Program-made: the position numbers and the translations under genes
The notes under the pieces: model-generated
Databases searched by the model: none
The model's input: the letters and a program-made list of their open reading frames with translations, nothing else
Told to the model about the DNA's origin: nothing
Source: Patescibacteria group bacterium
GTDB lineage: Bacteria; Patescibacteriota; Minisyncoccia; Minisyncoccales; Staskawiczbacteraceae
Direction: 5' to 3'
DNA: 64,000 nucleotides
NCBI GenBank assembly: GCA_018829965.1
Contig: JAHJTG010000016.1
Location: 29,537 to 93,536, forward strand
Shown: piece after piece, positions 8,125 to 62,523 of the stretch
Position numbering within the stretch: position 1 is the first letter of the stretch
Layout: each line of letters opens with the position of its first letter

Positions 8125-9111
8125 TTACCTGAGAAATATCTCTGTAATCAGAAAAGCTATATAAAGAAAGAGCAAAAACAGACCTTCTTTTTTAGTGATT
8201 TTCTGACCCGTTTTAACAACTAATAAAAAGAAGAAAGCGGCAATCACTGTAAATATTCTAGCTGTTATAAATGGAGAAAAATCTTTGATTTCAAAAGGTG
8301 AAACCAAAGCAACTATTCCTAATACTAAAGTAGCGCAAACAATAACAGAGCCCATTATATCTCCGAGAATCATCCAATTTTGATTTTTTTTTGCTGAAAT
8401 AAATATAAAATATATTTCTGGGAAACAATTCGCTAAACCAACAATAAGGATACCGATGATAGAAAGCGGAATATTAAAAGAAATGGAAAAAAATTGAGCG
8501 CTTTTTATAATCCCCTCCGAAGCTAACAAAAGCATGCCCAAAAGAAAAACAATTTTTAATAAACTTTTAAAAAAATCGATTACTCCCGCGATAGATTTTC
8601 TTTCTTTATTGTCATATATTTTTTTAAATCTATCTTCTTTTGAAAAAATCCAGAAGGTGTAAAATAAAAATGCGAAAATCAAAACTAACCCATCTCCCCT
8701 ACTTAAGTTTCCATCAGAAATTAAAAGCAAGGGTAGTAAAACAATTGCTGTTGTAAAAAGAGCGCTCGTTTGAACCATTCTGCTTCCGGTTGATAAATTT
8801 CCGTGTGTTAAAAAAACCGCTAAAGCCAATACTAACGACAAATCAACCATATTCCCGCCGAGTATATCTCCAAAAGCAAGCTGAGGTAAACCATGAAGAA
8901 CAGCACTTATATCCACAAAAAGGTTCGGGATAGAAGTGGCGAAAGCCATAACAAAAAAAGCGACTATAAATTCGCGCCACTTTAAAAATTTTGCAATTTT
9001 TATAAGAGAATCTACTAATATTGAACCCAGCCAAGGCAAAGCAAGACAAGAAGCAATAAAAATAAGCAGATAGAGCCAAATCATACCCAGTATATCAACA
9101 TCCAGAGCCAA
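8125..9111 (-). CDS. Ca2+/cation antiporter (CaCA/YrbG family)
   Basis: About 10 TM helices with two alpha-repeat-like motifs (AFATSIPNLF...GDILGGNMVDLSLVL and GLANCFPEIY...GDIMGSVIVCATLVLG). Confidence 0.75.
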   Translation of the reverse strand: MALDVDILGMIWLYLLIFIASCLALPWLGSILVDSLIKIAKFLKWREFIVAFFVMAFATSIPNLFVDISAVLHGLPQLAFGDILGGNMVDLSLVLALAVFLTHGNLSTGSRMVQTSALFTTAIVLLPLLLISDGNLSRGDGLVLIFAFLFYTFWIFSKEDRFKKIYDNKERKSIAGVIDFFKSLLKIVFLLGMLLLASEGIIKSAQFFSISFNIPLSIIGILIVGLANCFPEIYFIFISAKKNQNWMILGDIMGSVIVCATLVLGIVALVSPFEIKDFSPFITARIFTVIAAFFFLLVVKTGQKITKKEGLFLLFLYIAFLITEIFLR

Positions 9112-9238
9112 ACATAATATAATTATGTTTTCGGCTTGAATGGTGTTTAATATTTAATAAGTTGATATTCAGTAATACTAACTCTCGCAGTGGGTTTAGC
9201 ATTATATTGCCGAAAACACTGGATGTTGTATTACTGGG

Positions 9239-10366
9239 TCATAAAAATTTAAAAAAGTAAATTATTTCGTAAATTATTCCCATAATAAAAATGGAGATCA
9301 ATGGATAAGCTAGAAATCTTATTTTTCTTTTTTCAACCTTTCTATACATTAAAAGAATCAATATTCCTTCCGCAGCTAAAGCAACTGCACCAATAAACCC
9401 TATAACTCCGATAAAATCTTTAAAACCAACAACGTAAAGAATAAGCGGTATGAAGCAAGTTAACGCCCAAGAAATATTCTTTGGTATTTTAATATCATAC
9501 CATAAAACTTTCTTAAGATTTAATCCTATAGCGATAAAAGATGTAAAAGTGGCTAAAATCCCAGCGATAAACATAATATTAACAATTCCATTTCCCAAAA
9601 CATTTTTTAAACCAGAAATTGCCTCGTAAGACGTACTCGAGCCAGATATTGAGGTTATTAAAAGTATGAATAAAAAATAACACAAAGCCGGAATAATAGC
9701 GCTGGCAATAACTACTTTTTTTATCATTTTTTTATCTCTACCTAACATCTCTTCAATCTCAGGAATTAATGTAGCTCCCCATAAAGCAAATAATATCGGG
9801 CCGTAAGGCAAAAATAAATTACCTGAGCTTTTTACCTGAAATGGCAAGTTTTCTAATCTTATAAACCCGAGCCCGTTTTGAAAAACAATAAGCAACGAGA
9901 TAAAAAATAAAAGCATGCCCCAAAATTCAATCTTGGAAATTGCCTTTGTCCCCCAAAAGATAAAAAGGGCTCCTGTAAGAAAATATATAAAAGTGTAAAT
10001 AAAATTACTACCTCCAAAAATAGGCACTAATAAATTACTTAAAAAATCTCCGCCGATAATAATATAAGCTAAAATAGTACCGAATGACCCTAATATTATT
10101 ATTATCGTGGCTGCTATTCTCCCTGCTTTCCCTAAGTGAAATTGGCTATAGCCCGGCAGACGTAAAAAATCAGGAGTTTTTAAGGCAACTTCCGCGAAAA
10201 ACAAATGAATCAGAAGTACCAAAGCCGTCAAAACAACTAAATATCCCAACATCACCCAGAGCCCTACCTTTACAGTAATATACGGCAAAGAAAAAAGACC
10301 AACCCCGATAATGGTGCCCGATAAAGTAGCTACTGTTAAAATGTATTTTTTAAAAGACGAGGTCAT
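9239..10366 (-). CDS. amino-acid permease (APC-superfamily, Trp/Tyr-permease-like)
   Basis: 375 aa, about 11 TM helices, N-terminal GTIIGVGLFSLP motif typical of amino-acid/H+ symporters. Confidence 0.6.
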   Translation of the reverse strand: MTSSFKKYILTVATLSGTIIGVGLFSLPYITVKVGLWVMLGYLVVLTALVLLIHLFFAEVALKTPDFLRLPGYSQFHLGKAGRIAATIIIILGSFGTILAYIIIGGDFLSNLLVPIFGGSNFIYTFIYFLTGALFIFWGTKAISKIEFWGMLLFFISLLIVFQNGLGFIRLENLPFQVKSSGNLFLPYGPILFALWGATLIPEIEEMLGRDKKMIKKVVIASAIIPALCYFLFILLITSISGSSTSYEAISGLKNVLGNGIVNIMFIAGILATFTSFIAIGLNLKKVLWYDIKIPKNISWALTCFIPLILYVVGFKDFIGVIGFIGAVALAAEGILILLMYRKVEKRKIRFLAYPLISIFIMGIIYEIIYFFKFL

Positions 10367-10407: not shown

Positions 10408-11760
10408 TTAGCGCTTTCTATAATCAAAACGGCTTGATGGCCTACGACCAGACGGCCTACTATTTCTATGTGAAAAATAACTGCCTCTATTAAAACCACT
10501 GGGAGCATTAGATTGTCCCGATTCTATCGAGTATCCTTGATGGTTCCGACTTTGTCGAGAATCCTCGACTTTGTCGGGACTTTGCCATCTGGACTGACTT
10601 GAATGAGCTGGAAGATCGGGTAATCTTGAAATAGGAAGATATAGTCTGGTTAATCTTTCAATTTCTCTAACTTTAGCCCCTTGATCTGGTAAAACAAAAG
10701 AAATAGCTTTACCTGACATACCGGCCCTGCCAGTTCTTCCGATACGATGGACATAGTCTTCTGGATTTTCAGGAAGGTCATAATTAATAACTAATTCAAT
10801 ACCTTTAACATCTATACCGCGTGAAGCAATATCAGTTGCCACAAGCACCCTATATCTACCTATCTTAAATCCCTCTAATGCTTCTTTTCTTTGTCGGAGT
10901 GATTTATTTGAATGTATTTCTGCCGCAGAAACTCCAATATTGCGTAAATCTTCACAAATTCTCCTTGCGTTAAATTTAATTCTTAAAAAGATTAAAACGC
11001 TTCCCTTATATTCTTTAATCAATTTTCTCAATAACGAAGGCTTTTGGTCTTTTCTAACAACAAACAATTCGTGCTCAATATTTTTAGCAGTAGTCCCGGT
11101 TTTAGCTATCTCTACCCTAACAGGAAGCTTCATGTGATTGCTGGCAATTTTTACAATGCCATCTGGCATTGTTGCCGAAAATAACATAGTTTGTCTATCT
11201 TTAGGTAATACTTGTAGTATTTTAGCTATCTGTGGAGCAAAACCCATATCAAACATTCTATCGGCTTCATCTAAAACTAAGACTGTAACATCGCGCAAAT
11301 TAAGAGTTCTCTGTTGAAGATGGTCATTAATCCTTCCTGGAGTACCAATAACAACATTAGGATTATTACGGATCGCTCTTATTTGATTATAAATAGGGGC
11401 TCCACCGATTAACACAACTGTTTTTATGCCAAATCCTCTCCCTATCTTTTCTATAGCCTCACTCACCTGTATAGCTAATTCACGGGTTGGTAATACGATT
11501 AATCCCCTTCCCTTACCAGCTTTTAAAAGCCGCTGGACTAAAGGAATACCAAAAGCTAAGGTCTTACCTGTGCCTGTTTGAGCTATACCAATAATATCTT
11601 TGCCTTCAATAGCTGCAGGAATTGCTTTGTGTTGTATTGAGGTTGGAACTTTAAAATCCATTCTTAAAAGTACATCAAGAATCTTTGGAGCTATCCCAAG
11701 ACCGCCAAAAGTCATTTCTGTTTCGCTTAATATATGTTTTTCTGTTTGTTTGTTTATCAT
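10408..11760 (-). CDS. DEAD-box ATP-dependent RNA helicase with R/S/G-rich tail
   Basis: Q motif, AQTGTGKT, PTRELA, DEAD, SAT, HRIGRTGRAG. The C-terminal tail contains an in-frame GC-rich repeat (10517-10580). Confidence 0.93.
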   Translation of the reverse strand: MINKQTEKHILSETEMTFGGLGIAPKILDVLLRMDFKVPTSIQHKAIPAAIEGKDIIGIAQTGTGKTLAFGIPLVQRLLKAGKGRGLIVLPTRELAIQVSEAIEKIGRGFGIKTVVLIGGAPIYNQIRAIRNNPNVVIGTPGRINDHLQQRTLNLRDVTVLVLDEADRMFDMGFAPQIAKILQVLPKDRQTMLFSATMPDGIVKIASNHMKLPVRVEIAKTGTTAKNIEHELFVVRKDQKPSLLRKLIKEYKGSVLIFLRIKFNARRICEDLRNIGVSAAEIHSNKSLRQRKEALEGFKIGRYRVLVATDIASRGIDVKGIELVINYDLPENPEDYVHRIGRTGRAGMSGKAISFVLPDQGAKVREIERLTRLYLPISRLPDLPAHSSQSRWQSPDKVEDSRQSRNHQGYSIESGQSNAPSGFNRGSYFSHRNSRPSGRRPSSRFDYRKR

Positions 11761-11870
11761 TTAAAAAATATGTGGCTAAAGAGCCACACAACCACTATAC
11801 ATTAAATTATTAAAAATGTCAAAAAAAAGCCCTTGATGTTTCCATCTTGGGCTTTTTGTTTATATTCCTC

Positions 11871-12851
11871 TTACATTAAAGCAAGAGAATTTCTTCTTAG
11901 GTTTATTAAATTAAGCGCTTTTTTTTCTTTCGTCTTAATTTGCTTAACCGCCTTCACAGTGTCAGAAATAACCTTCATACTTTTACAACATTCTTCTGTT
12001 TGCTCACCAATTTTAACTAAATCTTTATATGAGAAAGCAGAAAGAAAATCATTTAATGAAATATCGGGAGCTTTAAGAAAAGCTGGCAGAGATTCTTTCA
12101 TTACCGTGAGTAAAGATATTAATGAACCTCTTCTTCTTTCGGGTCTACTAGCTATTCCTCCTACCTTTAACCCTGCCTCTGCTGCCTTAATTTCTACATA
12201 GTGCCTAGCCGTTTTCATACGCATCTTCTTCTCTGTCGTCTCTTTTGCTATTGCAAATTGTAAATCACCAGGTAAAGCTGTCAGCAAGATAGCAATTGCA
12301 AATTTAAGGCGCTCTTCAAACCTAACACTATAATCCATCATGGCGACAACTCTTGGGTCTAATTTTGTCAGGCTTAAGTGTTGATAAACCCAACAATTAG
12401 ATTTGGCAAACATAGCTGCAATTTGATTAACATTGTATTTACCTTTTGCATGAATCCGCCTTATAGCTAAAGCAACTTCGTATGGCGTATGTCCCTCTCT
12501 ACCAAAATTTGCAACAACTGATCTAATAAGACGTTCGTCTTCTTCCTCATTCGGAAGAACTATTGCCTGTATAACCTTACGACCAATCCATCTGCATGCT
12601 AGCCAACGGCGTTCACCATCATTAATTGAAAAGTATTCTGGATCCTTAGGATCTACCATTACCGAAATCGGCACTTTCTGGCCAACTTGGTTAATACTTT
12701 CACCTAAAGCCTGGATCGCCTTCTTATTAAAATGTTTTCTCGGTTGATCCGACCATGGCCTCACTTTTTCAACGAACAAAGTTCTTACTGAGCCTCTTTC
12801 TTGCCTTGCCTTTTCTACTGCCTCTTTCGTTAAAACGTTTCCATCAGACAT
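11871..12851 (-). CDS. ParB/Sulfiredoxin-like N-terminal-domain protein
   Basis: ParB-N signature around FSINDGERRWLAC (GxRR box) followed by an HTH-like segment. No adjacent parA. Confidence 0.65.
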   Translation of the reverse strand: MSDGNVLTKEAVEKARQERGSVRTLFVEKVRPWSDQPRKHFNKKAIQALGESINQVGQKVPISVMVDPKDPEYFSINDGERRWLACRWIGRKVIQAIVLPNEEEDERLIRSVVANFGREGHTPYEVALAIRRIHAKGKYNVNQIAAMFAKSNCWVYQHLSLTKLDPRVVAMMDYSVRFEERLKFAIAILLTALPGDLQFAIAKETTEKKMRMKTARHYVEIKAAEAGLKVGGIASRPERRRGSLISLLTVMKESLPAFLKAPDISLNDFLSAFSYKDLVKIGEQTEECCKSMKVISDTVKAVKQIKTKEKKALNLINLRRNSLALM

Positions 12852-16626: not shown

Positions 16627-16750
16627 ATTTATGAGCGAAGAAAGAATGAAAACTGAGGAAGGGAGAAAATAACAAAGTTATTTTCGACGACCGAAACTTT
16701 CATTCTGACTGAGCGATTAAATATATAGGCGATTTATCGCCTCTATAATT
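16627..16750 (-). repeat. F2 start-codon-abutting leader element, copy a
   Basis: Gene-sense strand: TTATAGAG-[GGCGATAAATCGCC]-TATATATTTAATCGCTCAGTCAGAATGAAA...TTTCATTCTTTCTTCGCTCATAAAT-ATG. Fills the whole spacer between the UvrD-like stop and the nuclease ATG. Confidence 0.85.
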
Positions 16751-19747
16751 TTAAGTTTGTCTAAAATCGCAAATATCTCTGAAGTCGCAATACTCGCACT
16801 GCCAGCCCGGAGTTGGCTCAAACTTACTATCTTTTATTGCCTCAATTTCTGCGATTATCTTTTCTTTTCTATCCTGCTTTTCTTTATCTGAGCCTAGAAA
16901 TGATGCTTGGCTATTGTTATCTAGGTAGTAATAGGCTAATTCTTTTGGTTTAATATTTAAAACCTCTTCTGCTGCTATTTGATAGATTAATAACTGGGAT
17001 TTATCGTCAGCTTCTAGCTTTTCTTTCGGTTTACCAGTTTTGTAATCAATAATCTTTACTCCATTTTCAGAATCATCAATCCTATCTATCACTCCGTATA
17101 AATTATATCCCCCTACTTTTAAATTGAAAGGTAGCTCTAATGCCAACTCATTGTTAATTTTTAAAATCTTTGGAGGATTCTTTTTAAAATCTTCGTAAAA
17201 ATCCTTAATTATCCTTTTGCCTAGTTTATAATAATCATCTTTTTGTTTTTTTGATTCGTACCACTCGCCAATCCAATTTCGTTCATAAAGCTTTTCCAAT
17301 ATTTTAAATTCATCCCCTTTCCCACTCTTCTTCCCAGTTATTGGGACGTATGACGTCCCAATAACTTTTTTACTAGGGCCGAATAGAGATTCTTGATTTA
17401 CTTTACTGGCTTCGTTTACATTTTTTAAAAAATTGTAAAGAGTGGCGTGCATTGTTTTACCGAACGAAAACACCGCCTTGCCCCTAATAGGAATCTTTAG
17501 AATAAACCCAAACTTGTACTGCAACGGACATTTTTCAAAGGCAGCCAGTTGGGAGAAAGAAAAATGCTCTGGCAAATACTTATTCTCTAATGTCTTAGGC
17601 TTTCTTATCTCTACCTTATCGGCTAATAAGCCCTTCTTTTCTTTAACTGCATCCCCTTTTGATTCTTCGTATCCCATTTCAATTAAAAATCTGGAAAGCT
17701 TCTTTTTTCTTTGACCTCCGTAATCTTGGGCCGATGTGAAATATAATCCTTTTTTAGCTCTCGTCATTGCCACATAACAAATACGCCTTTCTTCTTGCAA
17801 ATGCACGTCGCCTGTTGGTTTAATATCCTTAATTAATTCATCTGGTAATTCAATCGGTTCTTTTCTTTCTATCACAGGGAAACGCCTATCAACCATGCTT
17901 ACCAGAAACACATACTTAAACTCCAAGCCCTTAGCCGCGTGTATTGTCATTATTTTAACCATATCAGGACCTTGTTCTGGGTCAAATTCAAGTTTTCCTT
18001 CTTCTCCTGATTCAAGTTCTAAAGTAAGCTCCTCCATAAAGTTTTTTAAAGCAGGAGCAATTGCTGACTCCTCAAAACTTTGAACCTTATCGTAAAATTG
18101 GTTTAACAGGTCTAACTTCTCTTTTTCGTCTCGATTAATTAAATACTTTAAGTATCCGGAATCATTCATAAACGCCACTAATATCTCAATAACCGTTTTG
18201 TCTTTAACTAAAATGCTGTGTTTTTTGATTATAGAAAGGATAAAGCTTATCTTTTCTTTAGTTTGGGCGCTTACTCCAGTAATCAGCGGGGCTTCTTGCA
18301 ATGCCTCAAAAAGTGATTTGGTTTTTTTATGACCATATTGAGTAATAGTAGCAATATCCTCATCTGATATTTCCAAAAACGGCAAACTCAAAATCCTATA
18401 AACCGCTGCGCATTCATGGTAGTTATCCAATAATTTAAAGTAAGAGATAATATCTAAAATGACTGGCTTTGAATAAAGTCCTCTTGAAGCTAAAAATTGG
18501 TATGGCATGCCCGCTCTTTCTAAGGCTCTGACAAAGGGAATCGCTGTATCGTTTGCTCTTACTAAAATAGCAAAGTCGCTATAACTTGAATCTTTATCTC
18601 TCTTTAAAATTTCAGCAATCTTTTTTATTGTTTTCCTTACTTCTTCGTCTAAGCTTTTGGCACTAATATGTTCTATCACTCCTTCCCCCTTGTTCTCTGC
18701 AATTAACTTTTTATCAATCTTGTTTACAAACTCCAATCTATCAGGGTCGTTTGCTTTAATAAAAACATACGCTTTGTCTAAAATGTTTTGCGTAGACCTA
18801 TAGTTATTTATTAAAGATATTTGTTTGGCTTTTGTCCCGATTTCATCGAGGATCCTCGACGGCGAAGCCGTCGGGAAAAAATCCTTAGCAAACTGCACAA
18901 TATTATTAAAAGAAGCGCCTCTCCATCTATAAATAGCTTGGTCGTCGTCGGCACAGACAGTTAAATTATTTCCCGGTTCGGCTAATATCTTTATTAACTC
19001 ATACTGGGCGTAGTTTGTGTCTTGGAACTCGTCAACTAAAATATATTTAAACTTTTCCCTATACTTTTTTAAAATCAACGGACGCTTTTTAAATAAAAGC
19101 AAACAATAGTTTATTAAATCACCAAAATCCAATACGTCGTTATCTAAAAGCATTTTTTGATAAATATAGTAGGCATTAGCAACTTCTTTTATTCTTTCTG
19201 TCTCTTGGACTTCCGGCAAATCGTCTAAGCTTGTTTTTAAGCTATCTGCATATTTTAAATAGTCTTCTGGGTAAATACCTTGGTCTTTGCAGTGGGAAAA
19301 ATGATAAATTAGGGATTGTATAAACTTCGTGGGGTTCCCCAATGATTTGTAATAATTCAATTCAAATTTATTTAAGTTTTGACGAGCTAACAGCCACCCG
19401 GCGGTTCCATCTAATATTTTAAAATCGGGAGGCAATCCAATATCTAAAGCATTTTCCTTTAAAACTCTTTCGCAGAAGGCGTGGAATGTAGAAATCCACA
19501 AATCCATATATCCAAAGTCCAAAAGCTGGTCTACTCTTTCTTCCATCTCCCCTGCTGCCTTTTCAGTAAAAGTAACTGCTAAAATCTCCTCTGGCTTTGC
19601 CAAGCCCTTTTCAATTAAATTAACTATTCGCTGAGTAATAACCGTGGTTTTACCAGTTCCCGCCCCAGCCACAATTAAAAGAGGCCCCTTACCATGGACC
19701 ACCGCTTCCTTTTGCTCTTTGTTTAGTTTTTCCAAATTTAACGCCAT
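16751..19747 (-). CDS. UvrD/PcrA-type SF1A helicase fused to a C-terminal Cas4-like Fe-S PD-(D/E)XK nuclease
   Basis: AGAGTGKTT, DEFQDTN, helicase motifs through VAMTRAK. C-terminus has CPLQYKF, IDRIDD...IIDYKTGK...QLLIYQ, CEYCDFRDIC. Start set at MALNLEKL (19747), directly after F2 copy b; the track ORF reads on into the repeat. Confidence 0.88.
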   Translation of the reverse strand: MALNLEKLNKEQKEAVVHGKGPLLIVAGAGTGKTTVITQRIVNLIEKGLAKPEEILAVTFTEKAAGEMEERVDQLLDFGYMDLWISTFHAFCERVLKENALDIGLPPDFKILDGTAGWLLARQNLNKFELNYYKSLGNPTKFIQSLIYHFSHCKDQGIYPEDYLKYADSLKTSLDDLPEVQETERIKEVANAYYIYQKMLLDNDVLDFGDLINYCLLLFKKRPLILKKYREKFKYILVDEFQDTNYAQYELIKILAEPGNNLTVCADDDQAIYRWRGASFNNIVQFAKDFFPTASPSRILDEIGTKAKQISLINNYRSTQNILDKAYVFIKANDPDRLEFVNKIDKKLIAENKGEGVIEHISAKSLDEEVRKTIKKIAEILKRDKDSSYSDFAILVRANDTAIPFVRALERAGMPYQFLASRGLYSKPVILDIISYFKLLDNYHECAAVYRILSLPFLEISDEDIATITQYGHKKTKSLFEALQEAPLITGVSAQTKEKISFILSIIKKHSILVKDKTVIEILVAFMNDSGYLKYLINRDEKEKLDLLNQFYDKVQSFEESAIAPALKNFMEELTLELESGEEGKLEFDPEQGPDMVKIMTIHAAKGLEFKYVFLVSMVDRRFPVIERKEPIELPDELIKDIKPTGDVHLQEERRICYVAMTRAKKGLYFTSAQDYGGQRKKKLSRFLIEMGYEESKGDAVKEKKGLLADKVEIRKPKTLENKYLPEHFSFSQLAAFEKCPLQYKFGFILKIPIRGKAVFSFGKTMHATLYNFLKNVNEASKVNQESLFGPSKKVIGTSYVPITGKKSGKGDEFKILEKLYERNWIGEWYESKKQKDDYYKLGKRIIKDFYEDFKKNPPKILKINNELALELPFNLKVGGYNLYGVIDRIDDSENGVKIIDYKTGKPKEKLEADDKSQLLIYQIAAEEVLNIKPKELAYYYLDNNSQASFLGSDKEKQDRKEKIIAEIEAIKDSKFEPTPGWQCEYCDFRDICDFRQT

Positions 19748-19876
19748 AATTATGAGCGAGGAAGGAATGAAAATTGAGGAAGGAAAAAGTAAAAGTTTAC
19801 TTTTATTTTTGGCAACCGAAAATTTCATTCCGACCGAGCGATTAATTATATAGATAGCGAAGCTATCTCTATAATT
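19748..19876 (-). repeat. F2 leader element, copy b
   Basis: Gene-sense: ATTATAGAG-[ATAGCTTCGCTAT]-CTATATAATTAATCGCTCGGTCGGAATGAAA...TTTCATTCCTTCCTCGCTCATAATT-ATG. Confidence 0.85.
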
Positions 19877-20706: not shown

Positions 20707-20788
20707 TCTATTTTTAAAAATAGAAACTAAAGTTTATATATTTGCGGCGTTCGGTCGGAAAATAAAAGCAATCTTTTCTTTTCCTCCC

Positions 20789-21181
20789 TCACTTGCAATT
20801 ATTGATGATTGTTTTTAAATAGGGCCAGAAAATAAGAATGCCGATAATTGCCGCGCCAAAAATAACCAAAAATACAAAAGCCGAAAGCAAATCTTTTATT
20901 ATTTTAACGCGCGGGTCATGGCTTGGCTGTAAAAAGTCCAAAAAGCGCTCCATAATGGAATTAATCATTTCTAATCCAAGCACGGAAAAAATCATTACTA
21001 AAAGCACGGCCTTTTCTGTTCTGGTGGTCGGGAAATAAAGCATTGCTCCGACAACTAATAGAGCCGCTGTTGCCATATATTTAAAAGCCGGCTCTTTAAC
21101 AAGAACCGTCCATAATCCTTTCCAAGAATTCTGAAAACTCAAAAAAATATTTTTCCTTCTCTGATTATTATTTTGTTCCAT
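20789..21181 (-). CDS. dgkA: diacylglycerol/undecaprenol kinase (DgkA family)
   Basis: 3-TM small kinase. Contains SFQNSWKGL, EPAFKY, LVLGLEMINSIMERFLD, KIIKDLLSAFV. Confidence 0.8.
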   Translation of the reverse strand: MEQNNNQRRKNIFLSFQNSWKGLWTVLVKEPAFKYMATAALLVVGAMLYFPTTRTEKAVLLVMIFSVLGLEMINSIMERFLDFLQPSHDPRVKIIKDLLSAFVFLVIFGAAIIGILIFWPYLKTIINNCK

Positions 21182-23279: not shown

Positions 23280-23372
23280 AATTATGAGTGAGGGAGGAAT
23301 ATATGAAAAATTTTCATATATTCCGACTGAACGATTAATTATATAAATTACTTTTAGTAATTTCTATATAAT
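23280..23372 (-). repeat. F2 leader element, copy c
   Basis: Gene-sense: ATTATATAG-[AAATTACTAAAAGTAATTT]-ATATAATTAATCGTTCAGTCGGAATATATGAAAA...TTTTCATATATTCCTCCCTCACTCATAATT-ATG. Starts at the ftsI stop. Confidence 0.85.
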
Positions 23373-25433: not shown

Positions 25434-25568
25434 AACTTTGAAAACTCTAAGTTCTAATTTCTAAATCCTAAATAATTTCAAAATTCAAATATCTAAATTA
25501 TAAACACTTTTGAACTTTGGGTTTTGAAATTGTAATTTATTTAGAGTTTAGGATTTGGGATTTAGAAT
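25434..25568. repeat. F4 inverted heptamer-array element, copy a
   Basis: (TCTAAnT)n ... taaataatttcaaaa / ttttgaaattgtaatttattta ... (AGGATTT/GGGATTT)n. Fills the rsmH-ftsL spacer and abuts the ftsL-ORF ATG. Confidence 0.8.
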
Positions 25569-26522
25569 TTATGTTTTAACTATTGCTCTTAATTTTGCTG
25601 ACCTTGAACGATTATTTGATTTAATTTCCTCTAATGAGGCTGTAATCGGCTTTTTTGTTAATATTTTTATTACGCCGTCTTTTGATTGGTCTCTAAAAAA
25701 GTTTTTAACGATTCTGTCTTCCAGAGAATGAAAGGAGATAACCACTAATCTTCCTCCGGGTTCTAACACCTCTATTGCTTGAGGTAAAACATTCTTCAAA
25801 TTCTCTAACTCCTGATTAACTGCGATTCTTAATGCTTGGAATGTTCTTGTTGCAAAATGGATTCTTCCTCTTTCATATCCTCTCGGTACTGCTTTTTTAA
25901 TAACTTCTATCAAGTCAGTTGTTGTTTCAAGTTTTTTTACCCTTCGAGCTTCTACGATCGCTTTAGCGATTCTTCTTGATAATCTTTCCTCCCCGTATTC
26001 TCTCAAGATTGCTTCTATGTCGTTCTCTCTCCAGCTGTTTACTATCTGCCTTGCAGTCAGCTCGTTATCCTTTAAATAACGCATATCAAGCGGTTCATTT
26101 TTCATAAAGGCGAATCCCCTGCCTGAATCGTCTAGGTGCCAACTAGACATTCCTAGATCCAGTAAAATCCCATTTACCCCGTTAGAGGTTTGTCCCCCTT
26201 GTTCATCTTGTTCCCCTTCCGAGCCTCCTTGACCTCTAACTGGGCGAGCTGACCCGAAGTTATTATCTCGGATAATTTCTTTTAAATTTGTATAAGAACC
26301 AACAACAAGAATGATTCGATTCTTGTAATTTTCAATTTCCAATTTACAATTTTCAATTTGTTGACTATCTAAATCGATTCCTAAAAGTTTTCCATTCGGA
26401 CCGCTTCTCTCTAATATCGCAATCGCATGACCGCCTTCGCCTATTGTGCAATCAATAAAGTTTTCATTGCTCTTTGGATTTAAATATTCAAGGACTTCTT
26501 TTGGCAGAACGGGTATATGCAT
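25569..26522 (-). CDS. rsmH: 16S rRNA m4C1402 methyltransferase RsmH with in-frame F3-like insertion
   Basis: MHIPVL, DCTIGEGGH, ILLDLGMSS, RGFAFMKNEPLDMR, SFHSLEDRIVK. About 25 extra residues come from 26177-26244. Confidence 0.92.
   Translation of the reverse strand: MHIPVLPKEVLEYLNPKSNENFIDCTIGEGGHAIAILERSGPNGKLLGIDLDSQQIENCKLEIENYKNRIILVVGSYTNLKEIIRDNNFGSARPVRGQGGSEGEQDEQGGQTSNGVNGILLDLGMSSWHLDDSGRGFAFMKNEPLDMRYLKDNELTARQIVNSWRENDIEAILREYGEERLSRRIAKAIVEARRVKKLETTTDLIEVIKKAVPRGYERGRIHFATRTFQALRIAVNQELENLKNVLPQAIEVLEPGGRLVVISFHSLEDRIVKNFFRDQSKDGVIKILTKKPITASLEEIKSNNRSRSAKLRAIVKT
26177..26244. mobile_element. F3-related short inverted-repeat element inside rsmH
   Basis: Left end ccccgttagaggtttg versus F3b ctccgttagaagtttgc. 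Right end acctctaactggg versus F3 acttctaacgggg. GC-rich interior, translated in frame. Confidence 0.65.
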
Positions 26523-26981: not shown

Positions 26982-27201
26982 AACTGTTAAGTGAGGCGAC
27001 GAGTTTAAAAGTAAATTTCGCAGGCTCAATCTTTCAGTTAAGCGAGGCAATAATGTATGCGGGTGCACTTCGGAGCCAAGCTGTAAATGAGGACTCGGAA
27101 TAATATTGCCTACGTGCTTGGCGAGAAATAGGCGCGGCGGAGGAATAAATCTATTTTGGCTTAAGCCGACGCCGTGCTCCCGCATATATTATTGCCGAGT
27201 G
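26982..27201 (-). repeat. F1 composite: truncated arm of copy-a type plus a full copy nearly identical to copy e
   Basis: aactgttaagtgaggcgacgagtttaaaagtaaatttcgcagg (compare 5589-5630), then agttaagcgagg-[ggcaataatgtatgcggg ... cccgcatatattattgcc]-gagtg. About 100 nt match 44305-44425. Confidence 0.85.
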
Positions 27202-27202
27202 T

Positions 27203-27352
27203 TATCCACAGGTTAATTAGGTTCTCCCACACTTATCCACTATTATCCACTACATATCCTTTATACCCCACTTTATAGGATTGGGTCAACACTTATAAAC
27301 CCAAGCTCATTTCCCTAGGGAAAACACTTATTTCTCCACAGGAAATCCACTA
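27203..27352 (-). promoter_or_regulatory. array of seven GTGG(A/G) boxes in helical phase upstream of mraZ (candidate MraZ operator; also DnaA-box-like)
   Basis: CCAC cores on the plus strand at 27206, 27227, 27237, 27247, 27268, 27336 and 27347 (spacings 21, 10, 10, 21, -, 11). Includes TTATCCACA, TTATCCACT x2 and TTCTCCACA. Confidence 0.55.
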
Positions 27353-34390: not shown

Positions 34391-34420
34391 AAAAAAAACC
34401 GCTCGCAAGCGGTTTTTTCT
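34391..34420. terminator. bidirectional rho-independent terminator
   Basis: aaaaaaaaCCGCTcgcaAGCGGtttttt. Confidence 0.75.
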
Positions 34421-34427
34421 TTTTCTA

Positions 34428-34566
34428 AACTGTTAAGCGAGGAAAGTAATTTCTTTTACGATTCGGAGCGAATTGGATTGGTGTCGCCTTAGGCGACCAA
34501 TTCGCGAGTAGTAGCAAATTTTTCGCTGGAAAAAATTCGCGTGTAAAAGAAATTACTTTCCGAGCG
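34428..34566 (-). repeat. F1 long-hairpin element, copy d
   Basis: aactgttaagcgagg-[ggaaagtaatttcttttac ... gtaaaagaaattactttcc]-gagcg. Perfect 19-bp outer stem. Abuts the rplL stop. Confidence 0.88.
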
Positions 34567-35085
34567 CTACTTTAACTCTACTTTCGCTCCTACTGCTTCA
34601 AACTTCTTTTTGATGTCTTCTGCTTCCTCTTTCTTGGCGTTTTCTTTAACCATTTGAGGAGCTGCGGCTGCGGCATCAACTAAGTCCTTTGATTCCTTTA
34701 ATCCTTTGCCAGTAATATCTCTTACAATCTTAATAACGTCAATTTTCTTTTGTCCAACATCTTTTAACTCTATGTTAAATGAAGTTTTCTCTTCTTCTGG
34801 AGCTACTGCTACGGCCGGAGCTGCTGCTACGACTGGAGCTGCTGCTGATACGCCGAATTTGCTTTCTAATACTTTTACCAATTCGGCTAGATCTAAAACT
34901 GACATTTTCTCTATTTCTCCAACTAATGATTGAAATTTAACTGGAACTTCTATTTTTTTTTCATTGTCCATCGGAGGTTGAGTAGTTGTAGTACCGGTTA
35001 AATCCGGCTTACTTCCAGGATCAACGGAAGTAGTTTTGGTATTAGAAGTTGCCGTTGTGGGTTTGTTTTCTTTTTCTTCTGTCAT
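34567..35085 (-). CDS. rplL: 50S ribosomal protein L7/L12 with approx. 45-aa T/P-rich N-terminal extension
   Basis: Core [23 protein letters not shown], Ala-rich hinge, C-terminal domain [24 protein letters not shown]...[10 protein letters not shown]. An alternative internal start is Met-39 (34971). Confidence 0.9.
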
Positions 35086-35625: not shown

Positions 35626-35760
35626 AATAGTTTTGCTTCACAAAAGAAACTCTAAATTCTAAGCTCTAAACTCTAAACTCGTCGTGTTTGTAATTTTTAA
35701 TTTAGAATTTTGAATTTATTTAGGATTTAGAATTTCGGATTTAGAATTTTTACAAAATAA
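35626..35760. repeat. F4 inverted heptamer-array element, copy b
   Basis: aaactctaaattctaagctctaaactctaaactcg ... tttagaattttgaatttatttaggatttagaatttcggatttagaattt. Starts at the rplJ ATG. Confidence 0.8.
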
Positions 35761-35857: not shown

Positions 35858-36055
35858 CTTATTTCGTATATATTAATATCTTACACGATAGGATATGGAT
35901 GTCAACCCTTCCACTAATTTTTACAACAGAAATTGAATACTGATAATGACAGCCGCAGTCATCCACCTTTTTTGAAAAGGTGAAGGACGCAGGCGCTTCG
36001 CATATTATACAAACTACTATAGCGGCCTCTGCTGAAATTAGTGAAGGATCAATAG

Positions 36056-41026: not shown

Positions 41027-41188
41027 TTATCTTTTTCCTTCCTTGTGCAGAGTATGTTTTCTGCATCTCTTGCAGAATTTTTTCATTTCTAATTTCTTTT
41101 CAGCTGCTTTCTTTGATTTTTTTGTAAAGTAATTTATCTCCTTACAAACAGTACATAGAATCTTTGAAGCTTGTTTTTTCTTTGCCAT
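41027..41188 (-). CDS. rpmG: 50S ribosomal protein L33 (below the ORF-track length cutoff)
   Basis: Own translation: MAKKKQASKILCTVCKEINYFTKKSKKAAEKKLEMKKFCKRCRKHTLHKEGKR* (53 aa; CxxC...CxxC zinc ribbon, KHTLHKE). Confidence 0.9.
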   Translation of the reverse strand: MAKKKQASKILCTVCKEINYFTKKSKKAAEKKLEMKKFCKRCRKHTLHKEGKR

Positions 41189-41274
41189 ATTTATGAGCGA
41201 GGAAAGAATAAAAATTAATTTTTATTCTGACCGAGCGATTAAATATATAGGCGATTTATCGCCTCTATAATTTT
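41189..41274 (-). repeat. F2 leader element, copy d
   Basis: Gene-sense: TTATAGAG-[GGCGATAAATCGCC]-TATATATTTAATCGCTCGGTCAGAATAAAAATTAATTTTTATTCTTTCCTCGCTCATAAAT-ATG(rpmG). Confidence 0.85.
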
Positions 41275-41288
41275 AAATAATTTTAATC

Positions 41289-41547
<259 letters not shown>

Positions 41548-41557
<10 letters not shown>

Positions 41558-43677: not shown

Positions 43678-44223
43678 TTATTGTGGAACACCCGGTGTTC
43701 CGTCAACACTTGTTCCACCAACACCGGGTGTTGATTTTGCCTCTTCTTTTGCCTTTACTTCTTCCTTCTTAGATTCCTCTTTCTTCTCTACTACAACCTC
43801 TGGCTTTGCTTCTTCTTTCTTTTCTTCTTTCTTTGGTTCTTCCTTTGGTGTTTCTACGGCTGGAGTTACCGGTGCTATTGGTGTTATAGTCGCTTCTACA
43901 ACTGGTGCTATTGGGGCTGGTGCTGTCGGGGCTGCCGCCACTCCTTCTTTCTTCTTGCTTTTAACGTGAGTTGCTATTTTTTTACCTTCTATTACTTTTT
44001 CTCTTATTAAAAGGTTATGGATACTGACTGATGGCTGCGCGCCTTTTGAAATCCAATATTTTATTCGAGCGTTTTTTAAAGTCTTCTTTTTAGTAAAAGG
44101 ATTATATGTACCTAAAATCTCAACGCAGTCCCCAGCGCAAGAAGATTTTCTTTTATCAACAACTACAATCCTATAAGACGGCTGATTCTTTTTTCCTATT
44201 CTTGTGAATCTTATAACTAGCAT
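43678..44223 (-). CDS. rpsP: 30S ribosomal protein S16 with approx. 95-aa low-complexity C-terminal extension
   Basis: MLVIRFTRIGKKNQPSYRIVVVDKR core, then an A/P/E/K-rich tail. The last approx. 18 codons are encoded by GC palindromes at 43685-43733. Confidence 0.92.
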   Translation of the reverse strand: MLVIRFTRIGKKNQPSYRIVVVDKRKSSCAGDCVEILGTYNPFTKKKTLKNARIKYWISKGAQPSVSIHNLLIREKVIEGKKIATHVKSKKKEGVAAAPTAPAPIAPVVEATITPIAPVTPAVETPKEEPKKEEKKEEAKPEVVVEKKEESKKEEVKAKEEAKSTPGVGGTSVDGTPGVPQ

Positions 44224-44287: not shown

Positions 44288-44425
44288 AACTGTCTAACGA
44301 GGCAATAATGTATGCGGGTGCACTTCGGAGGTCGCCTAAGGCGACCGAGAAATAGGCGCGGCGGAGAAATAAATTTGTTTTTACTTAAGCCGACGCCGTG
44401 CTCCCGCATATATTATTGCCGAGCA
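44288..44425 (-). repeat. F1 long-hairpin element, copy e
   Basis: aactgtctaacgagg-[ggcaataatgtatgcggg ... cccgcatatattattgcc]-gagca. Ends 2 nt before the rnc stop. Confidence 0.88.
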
Positions 44426-44427
44426 AA

Positions 44428-45117
44428 TCACCAGGATTTTTTAACTAAAGCGTTTTTTGCCGCTGATTCTTCTGCCTCTTGTTTTGAAGAACCTTCGCCC
44501 TCTGCAATTGGTTCATCTTTTAAAAATACTCCGACCACGAAGCTTTTTGAATGGTCTGGCCCCCACTCTTTAGCTACCCTATAAACAGGGGTAATGCCAG
44601 CTCTTTCTTGGGCTTCTTCCTGAAAACGGGATTTTGAATCTTTAAAAAGGTTGTTTTCTATAATATTGGGCAATTTTACAATTAAATGTTTTTTTAAAAA
44701 CTTATCACAAACCTCATAACCGGAATCAAGATACATAGCGCCCATTAAGGATTCAAAAGTGTTTGCCAAAATATATTGTTTTGCTTTTCCGTCCTCTTTT
44801 GCCTCTCCTTTGGATAATAATAAAAATTCTCCTAAATCTAATTCTTGGGCTGTTTGAGCCAACATTTTGGCATTTACCAATGATGCCCTCCAATTAGTTA
44901 AATCCCCTTCTGGTTTTGAGGGATATTCATGATATAGATACTGGCTAATAACAAGCTCTATTACCGCATCGCCTAAAAACTCTAACCTTTCATTGTGGCT
45001 TAAATTAAAATCAGGATTTTCGTTTAAATAAGACCTATGAACAAAGGCCTGCGTTAAAAGGTCTTTATTTTTAAATTTTATATTTAATTTCTTTTCAAAA
45101 TCAGAAAATTCTTTCAT
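44428..45117 (-). CDS. rnc: ribonuclease III
   Basis: NERLEFLGDAV signature and a C-terminal dsRBD (GPDHSKSFVVGV...GSSKQEAEESAAKNAL). Confidence 0.93.
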   Translation of the reverse strand: MKEFSDFEKKLNIKFKNKDLLTQAFVHRSYLNENPDFNLSHNERLEFLGDAVIELVISQYLYHEYPSKPEGDLTNWRASLVNAKMLAQTAQELDLGEFLLLSKGEAKEDGKAKQYILANTFESLMGAMYLDSGYEVCDKFLKKHLIVKLPNIIENNLFKDSKSRFQEEAQERAGITPVYRVAKEWGPDHSKSFVVGVFLKDEPIAEGEGSSKQEAEESAAKNALVKKSW

Positions 45118-45192
45118 TATCTTCTTACGAATTACGAATATTTTCGAATTACGAATTCGTAATTCGGTGACATTCGTAATTCGTAGGGTTAT
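45118..45192. repeat. F6 CGAATTACGAAT palindromic element, copy 1
   Basis: cttacgaattacgaatattttcgaattacgaattcgtaattcggtgacattcgtaattcgtagg. Abuts the rnc ATG. Confidence 0.85.
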
Positions 45193-45621: not shown

Positions 45622-45692
45622 TTTTCTTACGAATTACATATTAAACCGAATTACGAATTCGTAATTCGAAAGTATTCGTAATTCGTAGGATA
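45622..45692. repeat. F6 CGAATTACGAAT palindromic element, copy 2
   Basis: cttacgaattacatattaaaccgaattacgaattcgtaattcgaaagtattcgtaattcgtagg. Abuts the nusB ATG. Confidence 0.85.
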
Positions 45693-45977: not shown

Positions 45978-46082
45978 TCTTTTTAGATTTTAGGATTTAG
46001 GATTTAGGGTTTAGTAAGTTGACTAAACGCTGAACGCTAAACGCTAATTTTTAGTTTACCAAATAATTTAATTCTTAGCAAG

Positions 46083-48693: not shown

Positions 48694-48779
48694 TCTTATA
48701 GAAATAACTTCGTTATTTATATAATTATTGCATTCGGTCGAAATGAAAATTAATTTTCATTTCTTCCTCATTTATAATT
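48694..48779 (+). repeat. F2 leader element, copy e (only plus-strand copy; same orientation relative to its gene)
   Basis: TTATAGAAATAACTTCGTTATTTATATAATTATTGCATTCGGTCGAAATGAAAATTAATTTTCATTTCTTCCTCATTTATAATT-ATG. Confidence 0.8.
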
Positions 48780-60462: not shown

Positions 60463-61386
60463 TCAAATTGTGAATAACTTTTTTACCGGATAAAAAGACT
60501 TCCTATGTATGGGACAAGACCCGAATTTTTTCAGCATTTTTATATGTAGTTTCGTCGGATATCCTTTGTGCTTATCAAATCTGTATTGGGGATATTTTTT
60601 ATGAAACCTTTCCATTATTCTATCGCGACTGACTTTAGCGATAATACTAGCTGCTGAAATTGAAATAACTTTTTGGTCGCCCTTAATAATACTTTTTTGT
60701 GACAAACCTATATTCAACCTAAAATTTCCGTCAATCAACAAATAATCTATATTTTTGAACTTTGGATTTAGAATTTGCTCCGACTTTGTTCCGACCTTGT
60801 CGAGAATGCTCGACTTTGTCGGCATCGAGAGTCCTCGACGATGTCGGGATTTAGAGTTTAGTATTTTGGATTTAGAATTTAAATTAGCGACGGCCTTAAT
60901 CATTGCTAATTTTGTCGCTTCTAAAATATTAATTTCGTCAATGATTTTTTCCGAGACCTTTCCTATCCCCCATTTGATGTTTGGGTGAGTAGTAATAACA
61001 TCGTAAAATTGCTCTCGTTTTTTAGGTGAAAGTTGTTTTGAATCTTTGATGCCAGAAATCCAAAACCCTAAATTAGAAATCCCAAACAAATCCAAATTAC
61101 TAAATTCTAAATTCAAAATGCGTTTAGACTTTTGAGTTTTTGAATTTTGAACTTGCTCCGACTTTGTTCCGACCTTGTCGAGAATGCTCGACTTTGTCGG
61201 CATCGAGAGTCCTCGATTATATCGGGATTTAGGATTTAGGATTTTGGATTTAGGATTTTTCAGCATTACTGCTGCTGCAACCACCGGTCCCGCGAGCGGT
61301 CCGCGACCTGCCTCGTCTAATCCAACAACCGCTTTACATTCTTTCTTCCACAATTTTTTTTCTTCATTAAAATTAGGATATTTCAT
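60463..61386 (-). CDS. rnhB: ribonuclease HII carrying two in-frame copies of a composite repeat
   Basis: GLDEAGRGPLAGPVVAAAV, IKDSKQLSPKKRE, LLIDG, AASIIAKVSRD, HKGYPT, HRKSF. Extra segments at residues 43-112 and 170-212. Confidence 0.9.
   Translation of the reverse strand: MKYPNFNEEKKLWKKECKAVVGLDEAGRGPLAGPVVAAAVMLKNPKSKILNPKSRYNRGLSMPTKSSILDKVGTKSEQVQNSKTQKSKRILNLEFSNLDLFGISNLGFWISGIKDSKQLSPKKREQFYDVITTHPNIKWGIGKVSEKIIDEINILEATKLAMIKAVANLNSKSKILNSKSRHRRGLSMPTKSSILDKVGTKSEQILNPKFKNIDYLLIDGNFRLNIGLSQKSIIKGDQKVISISAASIIAKVSRDRIMERFHKKYPQYRFDKHKGYPTKLHIKMLKKFGSCPIHRKSFYPVKKLFTI
60751..60879 (-). repeat. composite heptamer-arm plus GC-core repeat, copy 2 inside rnhB
   Basis: ggatttagaatttgctccgactttgttccgaccttgtcgagaatgctcgactttgtcggcatcgagagtcctcgacgatgtcgggatttagagtttag... 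Translated NSKSKILNSKSRHRRGLSMPTKSSILDKVGTKSEQILNPKFKN. Confidence 0.85.
61051..61260 (-). repeat. composite heptamer-arm plus GC-core repeat, copy 1 inside rnhB
   Basis: The same approx. 105-nt core as 60776-60880 (few mismatches) plus an additional heptamer arm at 61060-61140. Translated KNPKSKILNPKSRYNRGLSMPTKSSILDKVGTKSEQ... Confidence 0.85.
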
Positions 61387-61417
61387 AAAATAGAATAATA
61401 ATATATAAAAATACCCT

Positions 61418-61451
61418 CCGTGAAAATCACGCTATAGCGTGATTTTCACGG
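61418..61451. promoter_or_regulatory. 34-bp perfect palindrome upstream of rnhB (operator-like)
   Basis: ccgtgaaaatcacgctatagcgtgattttcacgg. About 45 bp including the flank is identical to 62022-62070. Confidence 0.6.
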
Positions 61452-61459
61452 ATACGTCA

Positions 61460-61999: not shown

Positions 62000-62028
62000 T
62001 ATTTTGTTATATCACAAAAACATAAAAT

Positions 62029-62076
62029 ATACCCTCCGTGAAAATCACGCTATAGCGTGATTTTCACGGAGGGTAT
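62029..62076. promoter_or_regulatory. 48-bp perfect palindrome upstream of the PaaX-like gene (operator-like)
   Basis: ataccctccgtgaaaatcacgctatagcgtgattttcacggagggtat. Confidence 0.6.
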
Positions 62077-62523
62077 ATAAACGATAATAAATAAACAATA
62101 AAAAAATGAAAACGATATCCTCCCCGCACCCCTATGGGTCGGTTTTCCTGTAGGGGAATAAAAAAAATCGCTCGTTTGTCTATGAGACAATAAACGAGCG
62201 ATATCTGGAACCCCTACCTTTCAGGAGGAAAGGGGTTGACAATAAAATCGGGAGATAAACAGCAAAACAAGCTAAAGGAATAAAAATATGGATGATTGAA
62301 CGAGCAGTCGCACCCGGTGAAGAAATGCAAACTGCTCGCAGGAGGAGGAAGAAGAAGATTTCGGTTTTTATCAGATTGTTAGATATTCAGAATATCTTTT
62401 AATTTAATTGTCCAAAGAACAATTAATTAATTATTATATCATAATAAAAAATACCAGCCTGTCCGTCAATAGCATGTTATCCCCCTGCTTGCTTCAGATA
62501 TTTTAATGAGTTAGAATATCAAT

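Follow-up and report, generated by a model that had tools for sequence, protein, structure and literature searches.

Why should a long, branched hairpin lie between the genes for RNase III and ribosomal protein S16 in the genome of an uncultivated member of the Patescibacteria, beginning just 2 nucleotides (nt) past the upstream stop codon? The hairpin in question occupies positions 44288–44425 of a 64-kb stretch of contig JAHJTG010000016.1 (hereafter ‘the window’, meaning the whole stretch analysed) and belongs to a family of elements, here termed L-type, that a first-pass annotation had noticed at five places in the same DNA. The coordinates given there for all five elements are correct, and so is the central claim that four of them dock on stop codons: their conserved right ends lie 0, 1, 0 and 2 nt, respectively, from the minus-strand stops of rlmE, an rmuC-like gene, rplL and rnc (TAG at 5781–5783, 7045–7047 and 34567–34569; TGA at 44428–44430). 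L-type elements, we find, are insertions.

Read in gene sense, the rnc copy runs from its stop codon as TGA-TT-TGCTCGG into a 16-bp outer stem, then a three-way junction and, lastly, CCTCGTTAGACAGTT. This copy and the one after rplL (34428–34566; 0 nt from the rplL TAG, with a canonical intrinsic terminator coming after it at 34393–34418) belong to subfamily B; those after rlmE (5589–5780; 0 nt past the TAG and ending 59 nt before prmC) and after the rmuC-like gene (6895–7043; 1 nt past the stop and ending 17 nt before the rplU (L21) start) belong to subfamily A, the rlmE copy being the longest, with its GC mini-palindrome duplicated. All four lie on the minus strand. The fifth element, annotated as a single composite, is present at its given position, but is actually a full subfamily-B copy (27033–27201, minus strand; preceded by TAA) with the 3′ fragment of a subfamily-A element (GCCTGCGAAATTTACTTTTAAACTCGTCGCCTCACTTAACAGTT; 26982–27027, minus strand) directly downstream; the composite adjoins no gene's stop codon. 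Over 78 nt the full copy shares 94% identity with that at rnc; the fragment is matched by the rlmE copy (nhmmer, E = 1e-4). Gene identities were confirmed for RlmE, the RmuC-like protein (a weak match), L7/L12 and RNase III; across the elements their neighbours are PrmC, L21, a HAD hydrolase and S16, respectively, and the composite lies upstream of MraZ. The GC content of the window is ~35%, and up to 46 kb nearly every gene is on the minus strand.

The anatomy shared by these copies, again in gene sense, is a foot (CGCTCGG ... CCTCGCT) and then an outer stem of 16–19 bp, free in sequence, which closes a three-way junction; the two inner hairpins of the junction can be exchanged. Conserved motifs (ACCATGC, and CUGCGAA or CUCCGAA) remain unpaired there, and a short single-stranded tail follows at the 3′ end (CTTAACAGTT in the window genome; CTTAAT.. 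or CTTTTG.. in relatives). Elements measure ~130–190 nt, and each copy folds with a z-score of −5.3 to −8.3 relative to shuffles. The conserved termini picked out in the first-pass annotation are real: AACTGTTAAGCGAGG, allowing up to 3 mismatches, has 7 matches where 1.5 are expected, a number that no shuffle reached, and CCGAGCG has 7 matches in the window against 1.9 expected. Its modular interiors are equally real, with the palindrome GCAACACCCGGTGTTGC of the rlmE copy found also in a copy from another genome (L129, see below) despite the rmuC-type outer stem of the latter.

The host clade of the L-type family is a Parcubacteria-like clade of Patescibacteria; the RNase III of the window is 100% identical to an NCBI protein labelled ‘Patescibacteria group bacterium’, and relatives of the window's RpoA and L12 carry the labels Staskawiczbacteria, Parcubacteria or Paceibacterota. 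The relatives and contigs compared here are labelled L120, L121, L122, L123, L125, L127, L129, L132, L134–L137 and L139. Copies outside the window were found by a gapped-pattern scan of metagenome contigs, which gave two genuine copies (L127 and L129), and then by fetching the syntenic loci of relatives. Running nhmmer with every copy as query over ~175 kb returned no additional copies, and scanning genome contigs with the 17-mer TWAACTGTTAARYGAGG, too short a pattern, gave 119 loci that were chance matches, none with a hairpin. Seven further copies in four related Patescibacteria genomes bring the total to 12 copies in 5 genomes: between rpoA and rplQ in L127, 1 nt past the stop of the one and 12 nt ahead of the start of the other; 1 nt past the rpsG stop in L129 (1119–1257; 79% identical to the rmuC copy of the window, at a different locus); 1 nt past the alaS stop in L132, which also carries a nested pair after frr (18871–19094); 1 nt past the rplL stop in L136/L137; and between the khpA terminator and trmD in L123 (11757–11905). 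The occupied loci therefore lie after rlmE, the rmuC-like gene, rplL, rnc, rpoA, rpsG, alaS and frr, and before trmD.

With the added copies included, the bias towards stop codons persists: of 11 copies that are not nested, 8 have a stop no more than 2 nt away (P = 3e-8 if positions in the spacer were uniformly distributed), and all 12 copies are in gene sense (two-sided P = 5e-4). A T-R-R triplet (R, purine) stands 0–2 nt before the foot in 10/12 copies, including the composite and nested copies that are away from gene ends. On the other side, TA follows the tail (AACAGT/T) in 9/10 copies, with a matching TAA or TAG in 4–5; the flanks fit either a T-R-R/TA target or a duplication of TA, and the empty sites available for comparison have strongly diverged. 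GC skew suggests that the gene-sense strand is the lagging-strand template in the window, and no copy lies beside a counter-oriented gene.

That the elements were inserted is seen most directly at the rnc–rpsP spacer, which is 204 nt long in the window and 27, 59 and 69 nt in three relatives (L122, L123 and L125, respectively) where the site is empty. The flanks in L122 are 89% identical in DNA to those of the window, and the RNase III C-terminus is kept at filled and empty sites alike (KKSW, VKNW or TKGW, each followed by the stop). At rplL, four relatives with an empty site (L135, L123, L125 and L139) pass from the TAA straight to a short spacer or canonical terminator; in the window and in L136 the element sits between the rplL stop (TAG in both) and the terminator, and the L12 C-terminus at the filled site of the window (GAKVELK, then the stop) is intact. 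The two rplL copies have no stem or interior sequence in common, and the L12 of L136 is more distant from that of the window (76% identity) than are those of the empty L135 (84%) and L123 (82%); the position has therefore most likely been hit twice, in two non-sister lineages, with the site in L136/L137 filled independently. In L132, a complete copy is placed precisely in the apex of another, which is older and more degraded; TGA precedes the inner copy, at a place where no gene ends. Interiors are mosaic, the L129 copy joining an rmuC-type outer stem to the GC mini-palindrome of the rlmE copy, and different loci are occupied in different genomes. Empty orthologous sites, nested insertion, mosaic interiors and differing loci together argue for insertion by a mobile family. 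Copies in L123 and L127 are ~85% identical, against 81% for RpoA of the same genomes, pointing to conservation of the family beyond neutral expectation.

An element that truncates genes and supplies a new stop was considered and rejected, the C-termini of L12 (GAKVELK) and RNase III (ending in W) being ancestral. Two observations on these sites stand apart. The rplL stop is TAG at both filled sites (34567–34569 in the window; 2917–2919 in L136) and TAA at the four empty ones, such that the G of the TAG may come from the element (filled versus empty, Fisher P about 0.07). Separately, the ‘empty’ rnc–rpsP spacer of L125 holds CTATTGCCCTAAACAGT (10693–10740), which resembles an L-type 3′ end (ATTATTGCCTCG-TTAGACAGT) minus the foot, and may be a remnant or an excision scar.

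Two more familiar identities can be set aside. An intrinsic terminator is rejected on the grounds that no U-tract follows the element and that, in both the window and L136, the rplL copy has a distinct canonical terminator after it. A ribozyme at the three-way junction, hammerhead or other, is rejected because, on inspection, the strands do not match the CUGANGA/GAAA core; Rfam is silent, its covariance models giving nothing at gathering threshold and only noise at E up to 10. The tail CUCGCUUAACAGUUUA resembles the boxA of Escherichia coli rrn operons plus its flank (a GCUCUUUAACAA-like box of the boxA/nut antitermination kind), a likeness not conserved in relatives (CTTAATTAAA, CTTTTGTGAA).

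Outer stems had been described in the first-pass annotation as differing in every copy yet staying complementary. Pairing is indeed kept while the sequence changes: with the feet of 10 copies aligned, 17/21 outer-stem pairs are doubly changed and 90.5% of cells are standard pairs, as against 60% in shuffles and 36–50% in slid alignments (for 7 copies, 15/21 pairs and 89.8% of cells, versus 63% in shuffles and 31–49% in slid controls). The stems are specific to subfamilies, however, and not to copies, since that of the rnc copy is found again in the composite (27048–27063), that of the rmuC copy in L129, another genome, and the rlmE-type stem in the fragment at 26982–27027; part of the covariation signal is, moreover, automatic, because the hairpins were aligned by position. 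Mismatches are almost all transitions, and symmetric between strands. Wobble-type mismatches number 7 in sense versus 10–11 in antisense for the outer stems, and 22 versus 30 over whole elements; with no strand bias there is no sign of selection on one RNA strand, a result that fits either constraint at the level of DNA or neutral decay. Nor does the covariation show a conserved functional RNA, given the strand-symmetric wobbles and the behaviour of mobile REPIN hairpins, in which ‘compensatory changes ... are common’ (PMC3116915). The antisense fold is the more stable in 9/10 copies, by 2–20 kcal/mol.

The foot itself has a life beyond the long elements. Written as NN-TC-GG ... CC-TC-N′N′, it comprises two base pairs, a 2x2 internal loop of TC opposite TC, and GG/CC; the loop is invariant in ~20 hairpins, whilst the flanking pairs covary (GC to AT, CG to TA), giving the variants CATTCGG/CCTCATT, CGTTCAG/CCTCACT and CGCTCAG/CTTCGCT. 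On the opposite strand the loop reads CGAG/CGAG, which forms a stable tandem sheared G.A. The foot as a TCGCT target-site duplication is rejected, since it leaves the conserved tail on its outer side and since CGCTCGCT is missing from empty sites; the variants alone are ambiguous on this point, CGTT/CACT supporting pairing, and CGTT/CGTT and CACT/CACT fitting a direct repeat. The same foot closes the short, promoter-proximal ‘P-type’ modules of the window genome, in which a stop codon, 3–4 nt, hairpin A (TATAG..CTATATA), ATTAAT, hairpin B, CATAAWT and ATG succeed each other, filling entire spacers and looking like terminator–promoter–leader cassettes. The module before the rpmG (L33) ATG (41179–41275, minus strand) has hairpin A (TATAGAG..CTATATA), TTTAAT, hairpin B (CGCTCGG TC ... 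TT CCTCGCT), CATAAAT and ATG, and is 95% identical over 60 nt to that at 16627–16750 (minus), which fills the spacer from the stop of an AddA-like gene to the start of a PD-(D/E)XK nuclease gene and has a compensated A-T pair in its foot (CGCTCAG/CTTCGCT). A further module occupies the entire spacer from the stop of a penicillin-binding protein gene to the next start (23280–23370, minus; CGTTCAG/CCTCACT, a compensated T-A pair); another lies upstream of the AddA-like helicase-nuclease gene, the true start of which is the ATG at 19747 (19748–19875, minus); and one lies between two plus-strand genes (48694–48779, plus; CATTCGG/CCTCATT, both flanking pairs changed).

Foot hairpins also occur antisense to flanking genes, once in the window (20748–20793, plus strand, the 3′ foot overlapping the TGA of a diacylglycerol-kinase gene at 20789–20791) and twice in L134. 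Recurring as it does in short and long hairpins, the foot is the unit common to a wider set of intergenic hairpins, of which the long docked elements form one branch. Two ‘degenerate relatives’ listed in the first-pass annotation are long branched hairpins close to stops and without the canonical foot, the first being more extensive than given: it spans 9085–9239 (minus), overlapping a permease gene's TGA at one end and reaching the ATG of the following gene at the other, and contains CTGCGAG; the second (35907–36047, minus) begins 8 nt past the stop of a YceG-like gene and contains GCCTGCG. Frames are not conserved in the small antisense open reading frames (ORFs) of the P-type modules, nor in an AUG-led mini-ORF seen in subfamily A, and these were dropped. 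Near-identical P-type cassettes (terminator hairpin, TATAAT-like box, foot hairpin, CATAAWT-ATG) recur upstream of unrelated genes, namely those for AddA-like and AddB-like nucleases, L33, a Mur-ligase-like protein and a glycosyltransferase. Most genes of the window genome have no Shine-Dalgarno sequence.

What, then, put a hairpin after rnc? We lean towards reading the L-type family as a lineage-specific, non-autonomous mobile DNA element, recognised by its structure and targeting T-R-R sites, and give this somewhat better than an even chance. Copies stand in gene direction, 0–2 nt past a T-R-R with the protein unchanged; they nest, and they conserve structure. From here we infer a trans-acting enzyme, a single-stranded intermediate and a target rule. 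The enzyme would recognise the folded foot and tail and not the sequence of the stem, and the element would probably move as single-stranded DNA, by analogy with the IS200/IS605 and REP/RAYT systems (HUH enzymes); REPINs have an asymmetric single-stranded tail in their putative intermediate, following an IS608-like logic (PMC3116915). Movement of this kind would account for a tail at one end only, for the strict orientation, for the want of a clear target duplication, and for stems that drift yet remain paired; it also fits with nested insertion at a hairpin apex, and with a copy identity of ~85% compared with ~81% for protein. Docking would arise from a T-R-R (TA-containing) target combined with selection that spares only the few bases between the stop and the next signal. 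Once in place, the element is transcribed within the mRNA, where it probably acts as a hairpin for stabilisation or processing, either at the 3′ end or between cistrons. Being part of mRNAs, the copies are likely to influence how these end or are processed, though we rank this as a consequence and not the cause of their spread.

Several points weigh against this picture. No gene for a transposase, HUH/Y1 enzyme, RAYT, TnpB or recombinase was found in the 64-kb window or in the gene tables of ~110 kb of relatives, such that the mobilising enzyme is wholly putative. No insertion polymorphism was seen within the species, two other assemblies (L120 and L121) being 100% identical to the window over the region. 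The gap from T-R-R to the foot may be empty or hold A, T or TT, and the third base of the triplet also varies, making for a loose T-R-R plus 0–2 nt where IS200/IS605 elements use a fixed tetra- or pentanucleotide; and the L123 copy (11757–11905), which lies after a terminator, has no T-R-R before its foot. A T-R-R target explains the docking only partly (P = 0.001–0.1, according to the number of T-R-R sites assumed to be available), although a narrow ‘safe zone’ between stop and terminator would lessen the surprise. In the copies examined, orientation to replication is not separable from orientation to genes. Finally, TA or TAR is present on both sides of 8–9/10 copies, which equally fits a DDE-type miniature inverted-repeat transposable element (MITE) that duplicates TA.

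The main rival to a mobile element is a selected, cis-acting RNA: a hairpin of the intercistronic region or 3′ untranslated region that starts at the stop codon and has spread because it is useful, whether by shielding upstream mRNA against 3′ exonucleases, by offering RNase III or another RNase a cut at the foot or AU-rich tail, or by coupling downstream expression to upstream termination. Copies are certainly transcribed in gene sense, with one between rplL and its terminator and another inside the rpsK–rpsD–rpoA–rplQ operon, 12 nt ahead of rplQ. All 12 have the orientation of their genes; the unpaired motifs are conserved and the internal loop of the foot is fixed whilst the stems covary, short hairpins closed by this foot occupy exactly the space that separates promoter-like −10 boxes from start codons, and docking at 0–2 nt is closer than would be predicted from a T-R-R target alone. 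There are precedents, too, in that Correia elements are RNase III substrates and that, in E. coli, a repetitive extragenic palindromic (REP) sequence within ~15 nt of a stop reportedly reduces translation of the upstream gene. Yet G.U is not in excess over A.C on the sense strand (7 versus 10; 22 versus 30), in sense the foot forms a loop of pyrimidines (U.C/C.U), and this strand folds less stably than the antisense in 9/10 copies; close relatives manage the same genes without the element, the neighbouring genes have no common function, foot hairpins are also found antisense to genes (20748–20793 in the window and two in L134), and nested or fragmentary copies are not what a regulatory element would be expected to leave. 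On this balance we consider a selected RNA possible but doubtful. A related thought, and one that we rate as distinctly less probable, is that the stop codon or translation termination is itself sensed, this one estimate covering two versions jointly: a mobile element with integration directed to stop codons, or a new class of structured, stop-abutting RNA, widespread in Patescibacteria. In the second, the invariant foot loop would be a binding or cleavage site that sets mRNA 3′ ends or couples downstream expression to termination, in hosts that mostly lack Shine-Dalgarno sequences, and the P-type modules would employ the foot a second time, where transcripts have their 5′ ends.

A DDE-type MITE duplicating TA or TAR (IS630/Tc1-like or IS5/PIF-like), with the outer stem as its terminal inverted repeats, would account for docking through TA(A/G) targets and purifying selection, and draws on the TA at both flanks of 9/10 copies, on matching TAA...TAA or TAG...TAG around 4–5 of them (rplL, L127, L129, composite, alaS), and on the long inverted ends, AT-rich context and existence of empty sites. 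We regard it as unlikely, if a shade less so than termination sensing. The inverted ends are wholly different between subfamilies, leaving a sequence-specific transposase only the 7-nt foot to recognise; the conserved 9-nt tail is at one end only; orientation is 12/12, whereas symmetric MITEs insert both ways; and no matching triplet surrounds the rnc, rmuC, rlmE or nested copies. The 3′ ‘TAA’ may also belong to the conserved tail, TA is common in AT-rich DNA, and no parent insertion sequence with these ends was found. Least probable of all, in our estimation quite improbable, is that the strand antisense to the genes is the functional one, as RNA or single-stranded DNA, with the foot forming the tandem sheared G.A (CGAG/CGAG). 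It is this strand that folds more stably in 9/10 copies (by 2–20 kcal/mol) and on which the foot reads 5′-NNGAGG/CCGANN-3′; three independent stems (that of rnc and the composite, that of rmuC and L129, and that of alaS) have an A.C mismatch, G.U in antisense, at pair 7–8, and the antisense foot is preceded at 5 nt by a −10-like TAAACT or TTAACT. But the total wobble excess (30 versus 22) is not significant, the difference in stability comes partly from the C>G composition of the sense strand, and there is no convincing antisense promoter.

The intergenic regions of the window hold other repeats and features that we note in passing. The full copy of the composite adjoins a cluster of DnaA-box-like sequences, three in number at 27201–27260 (TTATCCACA, then two of TTATCCAC), between an unannotated 510-aa gene and mraZ, with no GC-skew switch there. 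The mini-palindrome AACACC(C/G)GGTGTT, present in L-type interiors at 5663–5697 and in L129 at 1193–1209, is found twice in the last codons of an extended S16 gene (43685–43734, at the 3′ end of rpsP), where it encodes TPGV twice, and may be a separate small mobile palindrome. Within prmC, a perfect 48-nt palindrome (TCCAGCCGTGTAAAAAATTCGCGA|TCGCGAATTTTTTACACGGCTGGA; 5254–5301) lies in frame and encodes SSRVKNSRSRIFYTAG, reminiscent of the in-frame palindromic insertions (RPEs) of Rickettsia. Palindromic TACGAATTACGAA repeats flank nusB (45126–45185 and 45625–45690), 2–7 nt past the nusB and rpmF stops, and perfect palindromes on TCCGTGAAAATCACGCTA|TAGCGTGATTTTCACGGA are located at 61417–61452, 7 nt past a stop, and at 62027–62078. 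Tracts of the heptamers TTTAGGA / TTTAGAA (CCTAAAT on the other strand), often in inverted blocks, are seen in several intergenic regions (25448–25571, 35650–35750, 45990–46050 and 60846–61251 in the window; 8428–8653 in L134). Lastly, two tRNA halves surround an insert of ~190 nt at 41283–41556 (minus strand), an arrangement conserved in a relative (L123, 13410–13690); the 5′ half is GCCGATGTAGCTCAGTGGTAGAGCACTCCC, the 3′ half finishes with ...GGTCACCAGTTCAAGTCTGGTCATCGGC, a group I intron model matches the insert below threshold (RF00028, 24 bits, E = 4e-4), and the split tRNA was missed by ARAGORN and by Rfam at gathering threshold.

Patescibacteria genomes are tiny, streamlined and generally thought poor in mobile DNA. 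Repeated colonisation of the few bases after the stops of core genes (rplL, rnc, rpoA, rpsG, alaS) shows mobile DNA to be active within genomes of the group, and presents a clean natural case of insertion that is structure-recognised, direction-specific and placed at stops with a precision close to a single nucleotide. Should an HUH-type enzyme be responsible, REPIN/RAYT-like systems would extend to the Candidate Phyla Radiation; should the position be functional, it would point to control of mRNA ends at a level so far unrecognised, in organisms not yet genetically tractable. The elements have practical consequences as well, inflating intergenic spacers and creating spurious annotated ORFs (a 68-aa ORF in the composite; an over-extended start for the AddA-like gene).

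Structured, non-autonomous mobile repeats are a known kind, and the feature is statistically solid; none had been described in the Patescibacteria phylum, and the literature on Patescibacteria with MITE or REP terms yielded no description of such repeats. BLAST against phage and plasmid collections gave no match, nor did two gapped patterns against viral contigs. Amongst known systems, integron attC sites share an emphasis on structure over sequence, a variable or branched top, a place just past the stops of co-oriented genes, and a GTTAAGC (GTTRRRY-like) box; the identity is rejected, there being a single GTTAAGC box, in an unpaired tail, with no RYYYAAC partner and no integrase, and the neighbours (rplL, rnc, rpoA etc.) being housekeeping genes in conserved synteny and not cassette arrays. 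Correia elements of Neisseria and ERIC/IRU elements are likewise 100–150 bp long, flanked by TA and co-transcribed as long hairpins in mRNAs, and elements of this type affect mRNA processing and stability; unlike L-type, they have terminal inverted repeats of fixed sequence, occur in both orientations and do not dock at stops. Mycobacterial MIRUs and the stop-proximal REPs of E. coli are, as here, intergenic repeats positioned by the stops and starts of operon genes, MIRUs however being direct repeats that carry small ORFs, and the REPs being much shorter and less precisely placed. With DDE-type MITEs there is the likeness of empty orthologous sites in relatives (rnc–rpsP, rplL), set against their need for a family-specific terminal sequence where L-type shares only the 7-nt foot and has stems of 16–19 bp that differ by subfamily.

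Nearer are the palindrome-associated elements derived from the IS200/IS605 family (PATEs) and the single-stranded DNA mechanism of IS608, with which L-type would share hairpin recognition with no requirement for terminal inverted repeats, specificity for strand and orientation, and insertion immediately 3′ of a short target without duplicating it; PATEs have separate left-end and right-end hairpins, whereas L-type has a single global hairpin and no TnpA/TnpB partner has been identified. REPINs, of the REP–RAYT system, are short non-coding repeats that form long hairpins in single-stranded DNA or mRNA and are exclusively extragenic (Bertels & Rainey 2011, PMC3116915); they have conserved ends and a spacer that keeps its pairing through compensatory changes, persist vertically in a lineage, cluster or nest, and carry an asymmetric single-stranded tail (PMC3116915). 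In other respects the two part company. The REP unit is 20–40 nt with a GTAG/CGTC tag, which is not shared by the L-type ends CGCTCGG / CCTCGCT(TAACAGTT), GTAG preceding only the rplL copy and by chance. A REPIN is a doublet of two REPs, placed at random in extragenic space and served by a single-copy RAYT flanked by repeats; L-type is a branched three-way junction, strictly in gene sense and docked at stops, with no RAYT in the window or in ~110 kb of relatives, and in a host lineage, Patescibacteria, unlike those of REPINs. REPINs and palindromic elements derived from IS200/IS605 are the closest systems known, from which L-type is set apart by its branching, its foot, its strict orientation and its docking at stop codons.

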